Positions 1 through 5,182 of a stretch of 64,000 nt of DNA are shown here, piece by piece (positions within the stretch are counted from its first letter, which is position 1; each line of letters starts with the position of its first letter). The DNA comes from Candidatus Heimdallarchaeota archaeon (GTDB lineage: Archaea; Asgardarchaeota; Heimdallarchaeia; Heimdallarchaeales; Heimdallarchaeaceae). Both the position numbers and the translations under genes were made by a program. The stretch is taken from positions 64,001-128,000 of the forward strand of contig JAEOSZ010000031.1 of assembly GCA_016840095.1 (NCBI GenBank), written 5' to 3'. The notes below the pieces were generated by a model. The model was not told where the DNA came from. It saw only the letters and a program-made list of their open reading frames with translations, and searched no databases.

Positions 1-390
1 CCTTGTGTTATTTGCAAAGACTGTAGGGAGATGGATTTGAAACAGTATCCATTAAAAAACGGTTTTATCGAAAAAACAAGAAACTCAAGCTTGATTTCAT
101 TGATTTTAGAACTTAGAGACCCTTTTGATGATATGTTACTCAGAAGGCTAAGTTTAGCACTCTATGAATCTACAGGAATAGTTCAAAAAGAACCAGAACC
201 AGGTTTTTCGATAACGTTCTACATATCTGAAGCATTGTTAGACAAAATAACAGAAATTGAGAAACTAATTGACTTTATTGCAGATTTTCAACACAAATTC
301 TTATCAGAAACAATAGCAGCAAGAAGTGCTTTGAATAAGTGGGAGCGGTCAACAACTAAGAGGTTATTGTGGGATATGAGTATTCAATAA
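1..390 (+). CDS. ARPC4 (Arp2/3 complex p20 subunit)-like protein, 5'-truncated
   Basis: Frame is open from base 1 (PCVICKDCRE precedes the ORF-track Met). Blocks IEKTRNSSLISL, IVQKEPEPGFSITFYIS and KLIDFIADF...ALNKWER match, in order, human ARPC4 blocks recalled from memory: IEGSINSVRVSI, ILRRKPVEGYDISFLIT and KLVDFVIHF...SVNARAR. Confidence 0.75.
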   Translation, partial: PCVICKDCREMDLKQYPLKNGFIEKTRNSSLISLILELRDPFDDMLLRRLSLALYESTGIVQKEPEPGFSITFYISEALLDKITEIEKLIDFIADFQHKFLSETIAARSALNKWERSTTKRLLWDMSIQ

Positions 391-394
391 TTTA

Positions 395-1540
395 CTAAGA
401 AACACTTTTCCAGTAAAGACCTAGTTTATCTGCATGATTTCTGACTTCATACATTTCTGTAGTAGAAACCCTTTTGTTAATTTCTGGAAATCCACTAGTT
501 TGAAGGACTTTATAATCTGGGTGATATTGAGCCATGATGTTTACTAAAGGTGTTTTCAGATTCTCACTCACCCAATTCAAGAGAGGTATTGAACAACAAT
601 TTGTGTGATTTGGCATAACTAAGTGTCGAATTATATACTCACCAGTTCCTCTCTCTTCAATCATTTTCATATTTCTTTGAAGAGCTTCCCAATAATGTGG
701 AGCTTTGGAATATTTAGATGCACACTCTTTGTTTGCATATTTCATATCTGGTAACCAAATATCAAAAAGATCTGCAATCAATCTCATGCTAGTGTCTGTT
801 AAGTACATATTACTATTCCATAACATAGGTACATCCACTTGAGAATGGTGAAAAGATTCAAGAATTACATGGAGATTCGGTGTAGGATCTCCCCCTACAA
901 AATTGATATTTCGAGCATTTTGTTTAACAAGTGTATAGTAATGCTGAGCGAGTTGAGTCGGTGAAGACCCTCTTCCTTTTACTCTATCTAATTCAAATTC
1001 ATGACTAATATCCCAATTTTGGCAGAATTGGCAATGCATAGTGCAACCAAGGAAGAAAATAGTTCCACTTGGAACGATTGGGCTTTCTTCTCCCATGTGG
1101 ATAAATGCAGAACTGACATAAGCACTTCCATCAACTCCACATTTGCCAATTTGTCCTTCCTCTCGATTAGCCTTACATTTGTTTTCACAAAATTCACAAG
1201 AAGAGAGCATATCTTTCAAAATAGCTAACTTTAATGACAAATAATTATTTTTTTCTAAATCTTTATCCTTGAACAGATTTTCAACCTCTTTCTCAACTTC
1301 CTCTAAAGAAAGATGTTGTTTTTCAGAAACCCAATTCTTGAATTTTGAATGATTGTGTTCATGAATATTCAATAGTTCATCTTTATCTTTGAACTCATTG
1401 AAGGGTACATAGAATAATCGAGCTAGTTTATACCTAGGAATTCTCTTACCTTGGAATATTTCTCTATAGTGAACTAATCGTTCTTTAAATTCAACCTGCT
1501 GCCATACTGTCATAGCATCTCTTCTTAAAACCGCCCACAT
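395..1540 (-). CDS. PflX-like radical SAM protein (pyruvate formate-lyase activating enzyme family)
   Basis: CxxxCxxC motif CTMHCQFCQNWDIS; N-terminal CEFCENKC...GKC; HMGEE, SGTIFF, INFVGGDPT, WNSNMY, PDMKY, IRHLVMP motifs. Confidence 0.9.
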   Translation of the reverse strand: MWAVLRRDAMTVWQQVEFKERLVHYREIFQGKRIPRYKLARLFYVPFNEFKDKDELLNIHEHNHSKFKNWVSEKQHLSLEEVEKEVENLFKDKDLEKNNYLSLKLAILKDMLSSCEFCENKCKANREEGQIGKCGVDGSAYVSSAFIHMGEESPIVPSGTIFFLGCTMHCQFCQNWDISHEFELDRVKGRGSSPTQLAQHYYTLVKQNARNINFVGGDPTPNLHVILESFHHSQVDVPMLWNSNMYLTDTSMRLIADLFDIWLPDMKYANKECASKYSKAPHYWEALQRNMKMIEERGTGEYIIRHLVMPNHTNCCSIPLLNWVSENLKTPLVNIMAQYHPDYKVLQTSGFPEINKRVSTTEMYEVRNHADKLGLYWKSVS

Positions 1541-1697
1541 TAACTTATAGTTTGATTAGTATCTGAAATACTTTGTGTTGAAAACTAGATTAGAAGAATC
1601 AAATCAGTAATTTATTTCTTCAAAAAAACAAATCAAATATTTCCCTCAAAATAGATGTTAGTTTAATAAAATTTAATAATGAAGTTCAAAGAGTGTC

Positions 1698-2738
1698 ATG
1701 AAGCCGATGTCACAGTCTACAATGCACGAAGCTGAATACTATGAAGTAATTGATGAAGGTAATAGAGTAATTCAATGTCAACTCTGTCCAATTAAATGTA
1801 CATTATTGATAGGGGAAAGAGGTAAGTGTTTTTCACGTGTAAACGTTGAAGGAAAACTGTACTCCTTGACTTATGGATATACAGACATGAAAATTGATAT
1901 GATTGAAAAGCAACATGTTTATCATTTTCATCCAAATTCAAGAGTTCAAACATTTTCTACTTTCAATTGCAATCTGGACTGTGATTACTGTATGATGCCT
2001 GAAAAAATCAGTGTTGATCCAGCAGATACTGGAGCCAAAAAATTAGCGCCAGATCAAGCTGCAATGTTTAGTATGGCTTCTGGATCTAAGGTTATTGCTT
2101 TTGGAGAAGCTGAACCTTTGATTTCTTTTGAATGGGTTCGAGATACAGCCAAGCTAGCTCAGCAAAGAAATCTCAAAGTGTTACTCAGAACAAATGCTTA
2201 TTTCTGTGAAGAGCCTGTAACTGAAATACTAGAATTCGTTGATGCAGTTACAATTGATGTTAAATCGATGTCTGATTCTGGATACCAAGATAAGTGTCAT
2301 GCAGGTACAATAAATGACATTAAGAAAATTATTAAGCTAATCTTCGACAAAGGAAAATTAGTAGAACTAAATCTAGTAATTCATGAAGCTCTTGGAAATA
2401 CAGAAAATCAAACAAGAGAACTAGCTTCGTGGATTATGGAAGAACTCTCGTCATCAGTTCCGCTCCACTTAGCAAGGCTAATACCTTCTCATAGACTAAA
2501 AGAGCTACAACCAACATCTGTAGAATTACTGGAAAAATGTTATGATGTAGCTAAGGAAGTAGGTTTAGAATTTGTTTACCTTGATAATGTACCAGATCAT
2601 GAAGCAACGCATACTTATTGTCCGAAGTGTAAAGAACTACTTATACACAGAGGAGCATCAAATACAGAAGTAAGGAGAGTTTCTCTACACGGTACTTGTA
2701 ATAAGTGTGAAGCTCAGTTAAATATAGTTTTCAAATAG
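1698..2738 (+). CDS. amrS: AmmeMemoRadiSam-type radical SAM enzyme (divergent paralog)
   Basis: CQLCPIKC...GKC..RVN; CNLDCDYC; C-terminal VYLDNVP and TYCPKC...CNKC. Confidence 0.8.
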   Translation: MKPMSQSTMHEAEYYEVIDEGNRVIQCQLCPIKCTLLIGERGKCFSRVNVEGKLYSLTYGYTDMKIDMIEKQHVYHFHPNSRVQTFSTFNCNLDCDYCMMPEKISVDPADTGAKKLAPDQAAMFSMASGSKVIAFGEAEPLISFEWVRDTAKLAQQRNLKVLLRTNAYFCEEPVTEILEFVDAVTIDVKSMSDSGYQDKCHAGTINDIKKIIKLIFDKGKLVELNLVIHEALGNTENQTRELASWIMEELSSSVPLHLARLIPSHRLKELQPTSVELLEKCYDVAKEVGLEFVYLDNVPDHEATHTYCPKCKELLIHRGASNTEVRRVSLHGTCNKCEAQLNIVFK

Positions 2739-3072: not shown

Positions 3073-5019
3073 TCATTTCTTTTGATTATTGTTCTCTAAA
3101 ACTGTGTGTTCTAAAGCTAAATCTTCATACTTCTTAGCAACGTAGCTGTAATCTTTTGGAAGAGCATTGCGAAGAACCTCATGGAAGTTTGAGACTGGTA
3201 TAATTTCTACTTTGTTTTGGTATCTCTCTTCAAGTTTTACATCATCTATATTCTGAATTGGAACAATAACTCTTTGTATTCCTGCTTCAGCAGCTGCTTC
3301 GATTTTTGCAGTAACTCCACCAACAGGAATAACTACTCCTCTAACAGTCAAACTTCCTGTCATTGCAGTATCCTGTCTGATAGGTGCTTTTTCCAGTGCA
3401 GAAATAATTGAAACAGCGATTGATATAGAAGCTGAATCACCTTCAACTCCAGCATATGCTCCTACAAATTGAATATGATAATCGAAATCAGAGATGTCTT
3501 TTCCAACATATTTTTTCACTATTGCAGAAACGTTTTGAACTGCTTCTCGTGCAATAATTCTTAGTTGTCCAGTAGCTATGATTTTACCTTCTCTTCTACT
3601 AAAAGCAGGAACAACTTCTGCTTCAATTGGCATAACTATTCCTGATCTTTGATTAATAACAGCAAGACCATTAACTCTACCAACTTTGGCATCATCTGTT
3701 TCAAATATTTTGTAGAGTTTTCTTGAATCAGCGTAAGAATCACTCATCTGATTTTCTAAGGTTCTTGCAATCACTTTTGCATTTCTGAGTGTTTCTGCAG
3801 ATACTAAATTCTCACCTGTTTCCTTGGCTAAATCTCCTGCAGCTCTTATCAATCCACCTAATTCCCTTAATCGAAGAGTAAGATGACCTTTCTTGTCAGC
3901 TCTTCTTTGAGCTTCATAGATGATTTCTTCAACAGCTTCATGGGTGAAGTGAGGTATTTTTCTATCTTTCACAATTTCTTGAGCACAGAATCTAGCAAGT
4001 TTACGTCTGTTTTCTTGTGTATCTGGCATGGTGTCAGTCATATAAACTTCATATCCAGAACCTTGAATACGAGATCTAAGAGCAGGATGCATGTTTCGAG
4101 TAGTTTCAATATTACCAGCTGCAATTAAAACAAATTTACATGGAACCGGTTCACTTCTAACCATTGCACCACTACTGAGTTCTGATTGACCTGTAATTTG
4201 CAGCTTACCTTCTTGCATAGCAGTTAGTAATTTTTGTTGAGTTCTCATTTCAAGAGTACCGATTTCGTCACTATAAAGAACACCTAAATGTGATTTGTGG
4301 ATTAACCCACTTTCTACTCTTTCATGTGGGGGTGTTCCCAATCCTCCCGATTGGAATGGATCATGTCTTACGTCCCCTAAAAGAGCACCAGCATGTGAAC
4401 CTGTAGCATCATTAAATGGCGCTTTATCCCGTTTACTATTATCAACCAGTAATTTCGGCACCAAAGCTTCAGATTTTGATCTCGATTGATTTAGCATAAA
4501 GAATATGAAAAATCCTACAAACATAGCCATCAAAAGAGTTGTAGGCTGACTTGCTGGATTGCCAGCTGTAGCAATTAATGCATACCCAATTATAGCTAAT
4601 AAAATAGCGATTGAAATAATAAAACGTTTGTTTCCACTCTTTCGAGCAACCTCTGCGTCCATTTCTACTTTTCTAGCTCCATGTCCAGCTGGAAGAGTAG
4701 CAACTCGAGGTTGATTTGGATATTTTGGATTAGCAATACACAGAACATCAACAAGTTCCTCTTTTGGAAGCAGCTCAGCCATAGCTTGTCCGAGCATACT
4801 CTTTCCTGTTCCAGGCTCTCCAATTAGAAGAACATGTCTTCTTTGCAAAGCTGCTTTCTTAATAATTTCTGTAGCATTTTCTTGACCAATAACTTGATCA
4901 ATAAGTCTAGGGGGTACAGAGATTTCACTAGTATCATTGAAATCTATGTCTAGAAGAGTTTCTCTTTTAGCTCCCGATTTCGTCTTTTTCTTTCCCTTAG
5001 GTTGCGTTCCAGACCCCAT
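3073..5019 (-). CDS. lonB: archaeal membrane-anchored ATP-dependent protease LonB
   Basis: Walker A GEPGTGKS, two-TM insertion, LLGDVRHDPFQSGGLGTP, catalytic Ser in GVEGDSAS and Lys in GGVTAKI. Start moved to ATG at 5019 (MGSG). Confidence 0.97.
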   Translation of the reverse strand: MGSGTQPKGKKKTKSGAKRETLLDIDFNDTSEISVPPRLIDQVIGQENATEIIKKAALQRRHVLLIGEPGTGKSMLGQAMAELLPKEELVDVLCIANPKYPNQPRVATLPAGHGARKVEMDAEVARKSGNKRFIISIAILLAIIGYALIATAGNPASQPTTLLMAMFVGFFIFFMLNQSRSKSEALVPKLLVDNSKRDKAPFNDATGSHAGALLGDVRHDPFQSGGLGTPPHERVESGLIHKSHLGVLYSDEIGTLEMRTQQKLLTAMQEGKLQITGQSELSSGAMVRSEPVPCKFVLIAAGNIETTRNMHPALRSRIQGSGYEVYMTDTMPDTQENRRKLARFCAQEIVKDRKIPHFTHEAVEEIIYEAQRRADKKGHLTLRLRELGGLIRAAGDLAKETGENLVSAETLRNAKVIARTLENQMSDSYADSRKLYKIFETDDAKVGRVNGLAVINQRSGIVMPIEAEVVPAFSRREGKIIATGQLRIIAREAVQNVSAIVKKYVGKDISDFDYHIQFVGAYAGVEGDSASISIAVSIISALEKAPIRQDTAMTGSLTVRGVVIPVGGVTAKIEAAAEAGIQRVIVPIQNIDDVKLEERYQNKVEIIPVSNFHEVLRNALPKDYSYVAKKYEDLALEHTVLENNNQKK

Positions 5020-5182
5020 AAATATCACAAATTGATATAGAAGTATTTTCAATTGATAGGGATTACTAACGTTAATAAACATATGTTTTTGGTCAAAAAA
5101 TTAACTTCTTTTGATGTTTGAATATCTTTTACTAGAAATGAAAAGGCTTTAATTTCCATCTAATATTGTTTGCTTGAGATAG

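Follow-up and report, generated by a model that had tools for sequence, protein, structure and literature searches.

A stand-alone ARPC4 homologue in Heimdallarchaeota, with a conserved cysteine cluster and a predicted homodimer

ARPC4 (Pfam PF05856; chain F of 1K8K, 2P9P, 3DWL and 6W17) is the p20 subunit of the eukaryotic Arp2/3 complex, a protein of 165-168 amino acids (aa) whose C-terminal helix pairs in antiparallel orientation with that of ARPC2; the isolated ARPC2/ARPC4 pair binds actin filaments with micromolar affinity (PMC9894260). ARPC2 (p34-Arc, PF04045) has two domains and about 300 residues, and its globular domains have the ARPC4 fold. In a 2.7-Å structure of the branch junction, R158 of S. 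pombe ARPC4 forms salt bridges with actin E83 and D80, and N154 enters a hydrogen-bond network with actin E83 and T126 (PMC10918085). On the archaeal side, "ARP2/3 complex subunit 4" is listed as an Asgard actin-related signature protein (PMC7444086, PMC7522288), and ARPC4 is among the catalogue-matched clusters of a 2026 structural-clustering preprint (10.64898/2026.10.28.762692). The present analysis concerns a gene of this family located at the 5' edge of a stretch of 64,000 nucleotides of a Candidatus Heimdallarchaeota genome (hereafter the window; C163:64001-128000), in an assembly of 3.44 Mb and 165 contigs with a completeness of 89% and a contamination of 7.8%. The original 2017 Asgard genome paper reportedly lists ARP2/3 subunit 4 as well. 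The gene is not new: it is an orthologue of an Asgard signature protein catalogued since 2017, and sequences 92-94% identical to it are public. No description of the cysteines, oligomeric state, partners or neighbouring gene of an archaeal ARPC4-like protein was found in the searchable literature.

Compared with its eukaryotic counterparts, the archaeal protein is of similar length (162 aa versus 165-168) and is predicted to have the same alpha/beta core and long C-terminal helix, colinear from the N-terminal to the C-terminal helix. An N-S motif, a P-x-G-(F/Y)-x-I-(T/S)-F strand and an N...R actin-contact pair are common to both. It differs from eukaryotic ARPC4 in carrying four cysteines where the latter has S, E and V/Q, in having W147 where the latter has R or Q, and in lacking sequence-detectable ARPC2, ARPC3 and ARPC5 partners, its predicted pairing being with itself. 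The antiparallel pairing of C-terminal helices seen with ARPC2 recurs in this predicted homodimer; the archaeal protein has a single domain, has no PF04045 match and is clearly closer to ARPC4 than to ARPC2. Overall, the gene product is best explained, with reasonable though far from full confidence, as a stand-alone Heimdall ARPC4 homologue that would be metal-stabilised, self-paired and filament-binding.

Reading frame, homology and distribution

Frame +1 contains no stop from the first base of the window to the terminal TAA. The original prediction, which was made from the window alone and considered the gene to be 5'-truncated, proved correct in this respect: in the contig, the same frame runs upstream to an ATG located 99 bases 5' of the window edge, and retrieval of this upstream sequence gave a complete open reading frame (ORF) of 162 aa (P0001), of which the window encodes residues 34-162 and the stop. 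The ATG at window position 31 was rejected as a start, being internal to a frame that extends to the upstream ATG and gives the conserved 162-aa protein. A chance ORF or a pseudogene was also rejected, as orthologues retain both frame and length, with nonsynonymous divergence (dN) far under a saturated synonymous divergence (dS). Comparison of 7 orthologues gave dN values of 0.03-0.37 with dS mostly saturated and dN/dS ratios of 0.02-0.25; within the genus, dN was 0.044 versus a dS of 2.17, and the one unsaturated pair had a dN/dS of 0.15. The gene is under strong purifying selection.

The protein matches the Pfam ARPC4 profile with 30.9 bits, above the curated cut-off of 22.2 (expectation value, E, of 2.5e-7), residues 54-156 corresponding to positions 61-165 of the 167 positions of the profile. 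An archaeal profile built from 22 close relatives was searched in return against the sequences of the PDB, where only ARPC4 chains passed (3dwl_F with E 1.1e-5, 9dlx_F and 1k8k_F with E of about 4e-5), the next-best matches being globins with E 0.3. HMMER placed positions 52-153 of this profile on residues 58-161 of 9dlx_F with two small gaps, an alignment that reproduces all four blocks aligned by eye to human ARPC4 in the original prediction. Searched against 1.84 billion representative proteins, the same profile retrieved about 20 diverged archaeal families and then eukaryotic ARPC4 (E 1e-6 to 7e-4), the latter carrying the motif RHNKPE.... Identity to eukaryotic ARPC4 is 20-22%, and the joint archaeal/eukaryotic alignment is colinear from the N-terminal helix onward.

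The AlphaFold2 model of the protein (predicted local distance difference test, pLDDT, 84; predicted template modelling score, pTM, 0.80) has core elements comprising a three-stranded sheet, helix 74-91, strand 103-109 and the C-terminal helices; the alpha/beta core and the long C-terminal helix expected of an ARPC4 relative are thus both present in a model that matches ARPC4 chains. The top nine Foldseek matches of the model are ARPC4 chains (probability 1.00, template modelling score 0.64, 155-168 alignment columns). With VIA, ARPC4 chains were aligned with Z 12.1-13.7 and a root mean square deviation of 3.4-4.0 Å over 136-142 residues, residues 7-146 of the model corresponding to 6-155 of the chains; ARPC2 came next with Z 6-9, and type III secretion chaperones, the best of the unrelated folds, remained below 5. 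The relationship to ARPC4 first proposed from the truncated sequence therefore extends over the full length of the protein, by Pfam, reciprocal profile and predicted fold, and it is virtually certain that the gene at the window edge encodes a true homologue of ARPC4.

The 51 closest proteins, from Heimdallarchaeaceae or Heimdallarchaeota bins, share 58-94% identity with the protein, measure 161-166 aa with the exception of one fragment of 119 aa, and are all annotated with PF05856 in precomputed tables. They include a protein of Heimdallarchaeum endolithica (60%) and HeimAB125_10170 of Heimdallarchaeota AB_125 (92%); the latter, encoded by a different species of this genus-level group, is an orthologue of the same length with the same cysteine cluster, and shows no difference of substance. 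More distant ARPC4-like clusters are named Kariarchaeaceae, Wukongarchaeota and Njordarchaeales. The gene was found in 95 of 400 genomes of the phylum, always as a single copy, as in the source genome, except in two genomes (G070 and G075) having it at two places each. Its presence is nearly all-or-none per family, with 26/30, 21/22, 10/12 and 6/6 genomes in some families versus 0/135, 0/19, 0/14 and 0/12 in others. Longer ARPC4-like forms were observed in other Asgard families. In two families, these forms have 350-390 aa and end in a C-P-x-C ... H-x-D-H tail, their N-terminal part being a cysteine-bearing domain of about 160 aa (weak ATC_hydrolase-like match, E 0.036). A long C-terminal extension of low complexity was seen in one family, and a Njord-type form is extended C-terminally by about 200 aa. 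The fused forms were considered as a hint to function and rejected as such, none of them bearing an actin-related domain.

Cysteine cluster, predicted homodimer and putative actin contacts

The cysteine motif, C26-P-x7-P-C35-V-x-C38-x2-C41 (C-x8-C-x2-C-x2-C), is located in the loop that follows the N-terminal helix and is invariant in 22 Heimdallarchaeaceae sequences. Among 42 archaeal sequences with identities down to 17%, C26 and C41 are conserved in all 42, C35 and C38 in 41 each, and P34 in 40. At the aligned columns of eukaryotic ARPC4 the cysteines are replaced by S, E and V/Q, the proline and the valine being kept (N-K-P-E-V-E-V). The absence of a eukaryotic equivalent, noted in the original prediction, is thus confirmed by alignment, the cluster being archaeal-specific and conserved, with colinear S/E/V in eukaryotes. 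Because eukaryotic ARPC4 has the same loop in colinear position, minus the cysteines, the alignment indicates that the cluster is not an added module: the loop is common to both sides and the potential ligands are found on the archaeal side only.

The structural zinc loop of alcohol dehydrogenase has the arrangement C-x2-C-x2-C-x7-C, a ligand pattern mirrored by the archaeal cysteines. On the strength of their conservation, the four cysteines probably form a structural metal site. The gap between the third and the fourth cysteine ranges from 2 to 6 residues in distant archaeal members, which fits a tolerant structural zinc site; zinc is put at about an even chance as the metal, and an iron-sulphur (Fe-S) cluster is an improbable occupant. 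In one of the longer forms (L034), the second and third cysteines of the knuckle are replaced (P-C-V-F-S-D-E-I-C).

The homodimer was predicted by folding two copies of the protein with zinc three times, with a user-supplied alignment and with three controls. The ipSAE score was 0.84, 0.85 and 0.85 in the three runs and 0.00 for the best of the 3 controls; at least 96% of contacts are common to the runs, and partner pLDDT is at least 87. When the tool was calibrated, 20 of 30 proteins with a solved structure of two identical chains attained this mark, as did 1 of 23 solved as single chains; these figures apply only roughly to this dimer, as a user-supplied alignment was used and zinc was included. 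In the predicted interface, which is symmetric, each copy lays helix 74-93 and residues 115-125 against C-terminal helices 132-162 of its partner, and the C-terminal helices, counterparts of the ARPC4 helix that pairs with ARPC2, run antiparallel (contacts 136-151/155, 140-143/144/147 and 132-155). This interface would use the conserved hydrophobic residues L79, L83, L87, F125, W147 and L155, of which W147 is conserved in 37/42 archaeal sequences, eukaryotes having R or Q instead; the cysteine cluster (26-41) lies outside it. Mean column entropy was 2.22 for the interface versus 1.96 for the rest of the protein, hence not lower, and this crude test adds no support. The homodimer suggested in the original prediction was thus recovered in the model as a symmetric assembly with clean controls, which tips the balance slightly towards a protein that forms homodimers via antiparallel C-terminal helices.

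Residues N145 and R149 align to N154 and R158 of S. pombe ARPC4 (3dwl_F). N145 is conserved in 33/42 archaeal and 6/6 eukaryotic sequences, and R149 in 34/42 archaeal sequences, with R or K in 6/6 eukaryotic ones; both are absent from the list of predicted dimer-interface residues. The actin of the source genome (C119) reads Q-D-W-D-A-M-E-R-I-W and F-D-T-F-N at the facing positions, so that D80, E83 and T126 are kept. These conserved residues are compatible with side-binding to the organism's own filaments, which would offer two sites per dimer. Judged from such residues, binding of the protein to actin filaments is possible, if somewhat short of likely.

Genomic context and neighbouring genes

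The gene is preceded, on the same strand and at a distance of 48 nucleotides (nt), by a gene of 151 aa (P0084). This neighbour has no Pfam family match and is modelled as a confident helical bundle (pLDDT 87.8); its best Foldseek match has E 0.34, and VIA gave Z 8.8 to the N-terminal bundles of Not5/CNOT3, a value in the common range for helical bundles and under the level that the tool treats as meaningful for them. An assignment to ARPC5 or ARPC3 was considered and is unsupported, in that there is no Pfam match and no ARPC5 or ARPC3 chain in the rows listed by Foldseek and VIA, although the proteins may yet be related. The neighbour accompanies the ARPC4-like gene at every Heimdallarchaeaceae locus examined, with partner identity down to 31%, and the locus tags of the two genes are consecutive in deposited genomes. 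It is under purifying selection (dN/dS 0.14-0.5). A TATA-like A/T stretch is found 20-35 nt before the ATG of both genes, which in such A+T-rich DNA is weak evidence for separate promoters.

A sister family of the same taxonomic order has a homologue of about 245 aa, with an L-W-K-x-R-x-D motif in common. Run on 552 ORFs, hmmsearch detected this homologue with E 8e-6 to 2e-4, and jackhmmer gathers all five. It adjoins the ARPC4-like gene in 8 of the 10 sister-family genomes having both genes, in one of three ways: on the same strand, either before or after it, or divergently. In the two non-adjacent cases, a contig end comes within about 550 bases of the ARPC4-like gene. Because this adjacency survives rearrangement, it suggests that the neighbour and the ARPC4-like gene are functionally linked.

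On either side of the locus, two class V aminotransferase genes (cysteine-desulfurase-like) are located upstream, and two radical S-adenosylmethionine (SAM) genes, followed by LonB, downstream; the convergent radical SAM gene ends 4 bases past the ARPC4-like stop. This gene order recurs in part in H. endolithica, with a class V aminotransferase (Aminotran_5) upstream, and in another Heimdall lineage (L012), with two radical SAM genes downstream and LonB upstream. The coordinates of all features are given in Table 1.

Searches for the other Arp2/3 subunits were performed over the whole 89%-complete genome. No match over the cut-off was found for PF04045 (ARPC2), PF04062 (ARPC3) or PF04699 (ARPC5), the PF04045 control having matched in no genome, so that the ARPC2 search is without a positive control; no second ARPC4/ARPC2-like sequence appeared in the genome even at E 10. 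No sequence-detectable set of ARPC2, ARPC3, ARPC5 and an Arp2/Arp3 pair thus accompanies the gene, the genome having one actin and one lineage-restricted actin-related protein (ARP). This ARP of 489 aa, whose actin-fold halves are separated by a large insertion and whose N-terminal part bears a C-x...C-x2-C stretch, is fast-evolving (38-63% identity among relatives) and is limited to 17 of the 30 genomes of the source family and to one neighbouring family. The actin gene opens a short contig, and another contig has an actin N-terminal fragment of 32 residues at its edge; the assembly may have split one gene into the two, or the fragment may belong to a second actin copy. A Pfam search of the genome for profilin gave no match, which says little, Asgard profilins being very diverged.

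Table 1. Coordinates of the ARPC4-like gene, its sub-features and related genes (window positions unless a contig, C, or locus, L, is named)
Feature	Coordinates	Strand	Evidence or remark
Complete ARPC4-like gene	C163:63902-64390 = L001:1402-1890	+	162 aa
3' part of ARPC4-like gene	1-390	+	ORF list, genome placement, Pfam ARPC4 over cut-off, dN/dS
Stop codon TAA	388-390	+	
Codon C26	L001:1477-1479	+	fourth Cys, just 5' of window
PCVICKDC cluster	1-24	+	
Codons C35 (4-6), C38 (13-15), C41 (22-24); putative structural metal site	4-24	+	conservation counts
Core matching Pfam ARPC4 profile, residues 54-156	61-369	+	profile, AlphaFold2 model, fold comparison
C-terminal helices, residues 129-158	286-375	+	AlphaFold2 secondary structure, predicted homodimer contacts
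Codons N145 (334-336), W147 (340-342), R149 (346-348)	334-348	+	alignment to 3dwl_F, conservation, interface list
151-aa neighbour	L001:898-1353 (C163:63398-63853)	+	147 to 602 bases before window start
Sister-family homologues of about 245 aa	L026:265-999, L013:4176-4907, L023:2586-3341, L024:2632-3363, L025:1233-2027		
Two class V aminotransferase genes	L002:12745-15348		upstream
Two radical SAM genes	395-2738		downstream
LonB	3073-5082		after radical SAM genes
Longer ARPC4-like forms	L035:952-2013, L034:947-2122, L036:480-1553	-	other Asgard families
489-aa ARP	L004:841-2310 (C107:6026-7495)		
Actin gene	L003:5-1150		start of contig C119
Actin N-terminal fragment	C118:1-96		contig edge

Proposed mechanism, rival explanations and meaning

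The function of the protein is throughout one that we infer. In the proposed mechanism, the four cysteines would serve as ligands of a structural metal, with zinc the likeliest choice; two copies would pair via their antiparallel C-terminal helices and helix 74-91 to give a symmetric clamp of the ARPC2/ARPC4 type; and the exposed face of each C-terminal helix, bearing N145 and R149, would bind subdomain 1 of the organism's own actin filament, in the manner of ARPC4 N154 and R158 at the branch junction. Such a dimer would act as a filament side-binder or cross-linker and not as a branch nucleator.

Several observations weigh against this metal-stabilised, self-paired filament binder. The original prediction proposed that actin, Arp or gelsolin homologues be sought upstream, and none lies near the locus: no actin, ARP, gelsolin or profilin gene was found within 16 kb upstream or 6 kb downstream, and an actin-linked neighbourhood was rejected, as none was seen in the source genome or in five other lineages. 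The neighbours are instead aminotransferase class V, radical SAM, LonB and PRPP-synthetase-like (phosphoribosyl pyrophosphate) genes, the surroundings differ in Wukong, Njord and other lineages, and the genome's actin, 489-aa ARP and gelsolin-domain proteins are all encoded on contigs other than C163. The idea that the ARP tracks the ARPC4-like gene was rejected, the former being confined to two families. Actin E99, which pairs with a further contact residue of yeast ARPC4, is replaced by N in the source genome. As to the metal, cysteine spacing becomes C-x2-C-x3-C or C-x2-C-x6-C in distant members, two of which are one cysteine short, and the position of zinc was outside the scoring of the dimer prediction. 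The success of that prediction may itself reflect the model's memory of the solved ARPC2/ARPC4 pair, a possibility of which the tool gives warning, because the predicted arrangement of helices is the one described for that pair. Finally, no assay of any archaeal ARPC4-like member was found in the searchable literature.

The conserved neighbour raises the possibility that, in Heimdallarchaeales, the functional unit is a hetero-complex of the ARPC4-like protein with the product of the 151-aa gene, the homodimer being no part, or only one part, of it. Its close same-strand position at all Heimdallarchaeaceae loci examined, the adjacency of its homologue in three arrangements in most sister-family genomes, its purifying selection and its confident model speak for such a complex. 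The distribution of the two genes does not follow, however: 21/22 genomes of one family carry the ARPC4-like gene and 0/22 the partner, 12/12 genomes of another give weak partner-like matches and lack the ARPC4-like gene, the pair is on different contigs in two other families of the order, and adjacency to the partner is not seen in Wukong, in Njord or in another Heimdall lineage. As the partner moreover belongs to no Pfam family and has a generic helical-bundle fold, by its Foldseek and VIA scores, a hetero-complex is considered unlikely, if worth keeping in view. Larger still would be a proto-Arp2/3 complex of which the protein is one subunit, its ARPC2-like partner and one or two ARPs having diverged too far to be detected by sequence. 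The genome does have an actin, the 489-aa ARP and gelsolin-domain proteins, it is incomplete, and very diverged small subunits can escape profile searches; yet neither the profiles of ARPC2, ARPC3 and ARPC5 nor the search at E 10 gave a candidate, the ARPC4-like gene is distributed far more widely than the long ARP, and it is a single copy in nearly every genome that carries it. This proto-complex is judged very unlikely.

A different reading of the cysteines is that the ARPC4 fold serves a purpose unrelated to actin, for example as a small Fe-S/redox-linked scaffold holding a [4Fe-4S] cluster. The pattern C-P ... C-x2-C-x2-C recalls ferredoxin-type ligands, and its span of 16 residues is compact, like the cluster loop of endonuclease III. 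The locus lies between the two class V aminotransferase and the two radical SAM genes, a context that recurs in part in H. endolithica and another Heimdall lineage, and no actin-system gene is linked to it in any lineage examined. This context is weak evidence, however, because Fe-S enzymes are very common in these anaerobes, and it is absent at the Njord and Kari loci. The third-to-fourth cysteine gap of 2-6 residues suits structural zinc better than a cubane, the residues common with eukaryotic ARPC4 include both of those that contact actin, and the family occurs solely in Asgard lineages, all of which have eukaryote-like actin. Such an Fe-S role is accordingly quite improbable, and the metal-stabilised, self-paired filament binder is preferred.

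Extended to evolution, this preferred explanation leads to a scenario that we regard as doubtful in its entirety: a metal-stabilised stand-alone ARPC4 homodimer would be an actin side-binding clamp in Heimdall, Njord and Wukong lineages and would represent the pre-duplication state of the ARPC2/ARPC4 core, its cysteine knuckle having been lost on the eukaryotic stem, and the helical-bundle neighbour joining it in Heimdallarchaeales.

Among the open questions of eukaryogenesis is the origin of the seven-subunit Arp2/3 branching machine, and of its subunits other than the Arps, ARPC4 alone has an archaeal relative in the lists of the searchable literature. The conserved neighbouring gene is a modest addition to a known family, and the 162-aa protein, with its confident model, is a small and well-behaved-looking target. 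If it binds the sides of filaments, such binding by an ARPC4-type clamp would predate the Arp2/3 complex; if it does not, the fold would have been recruited to actin later.

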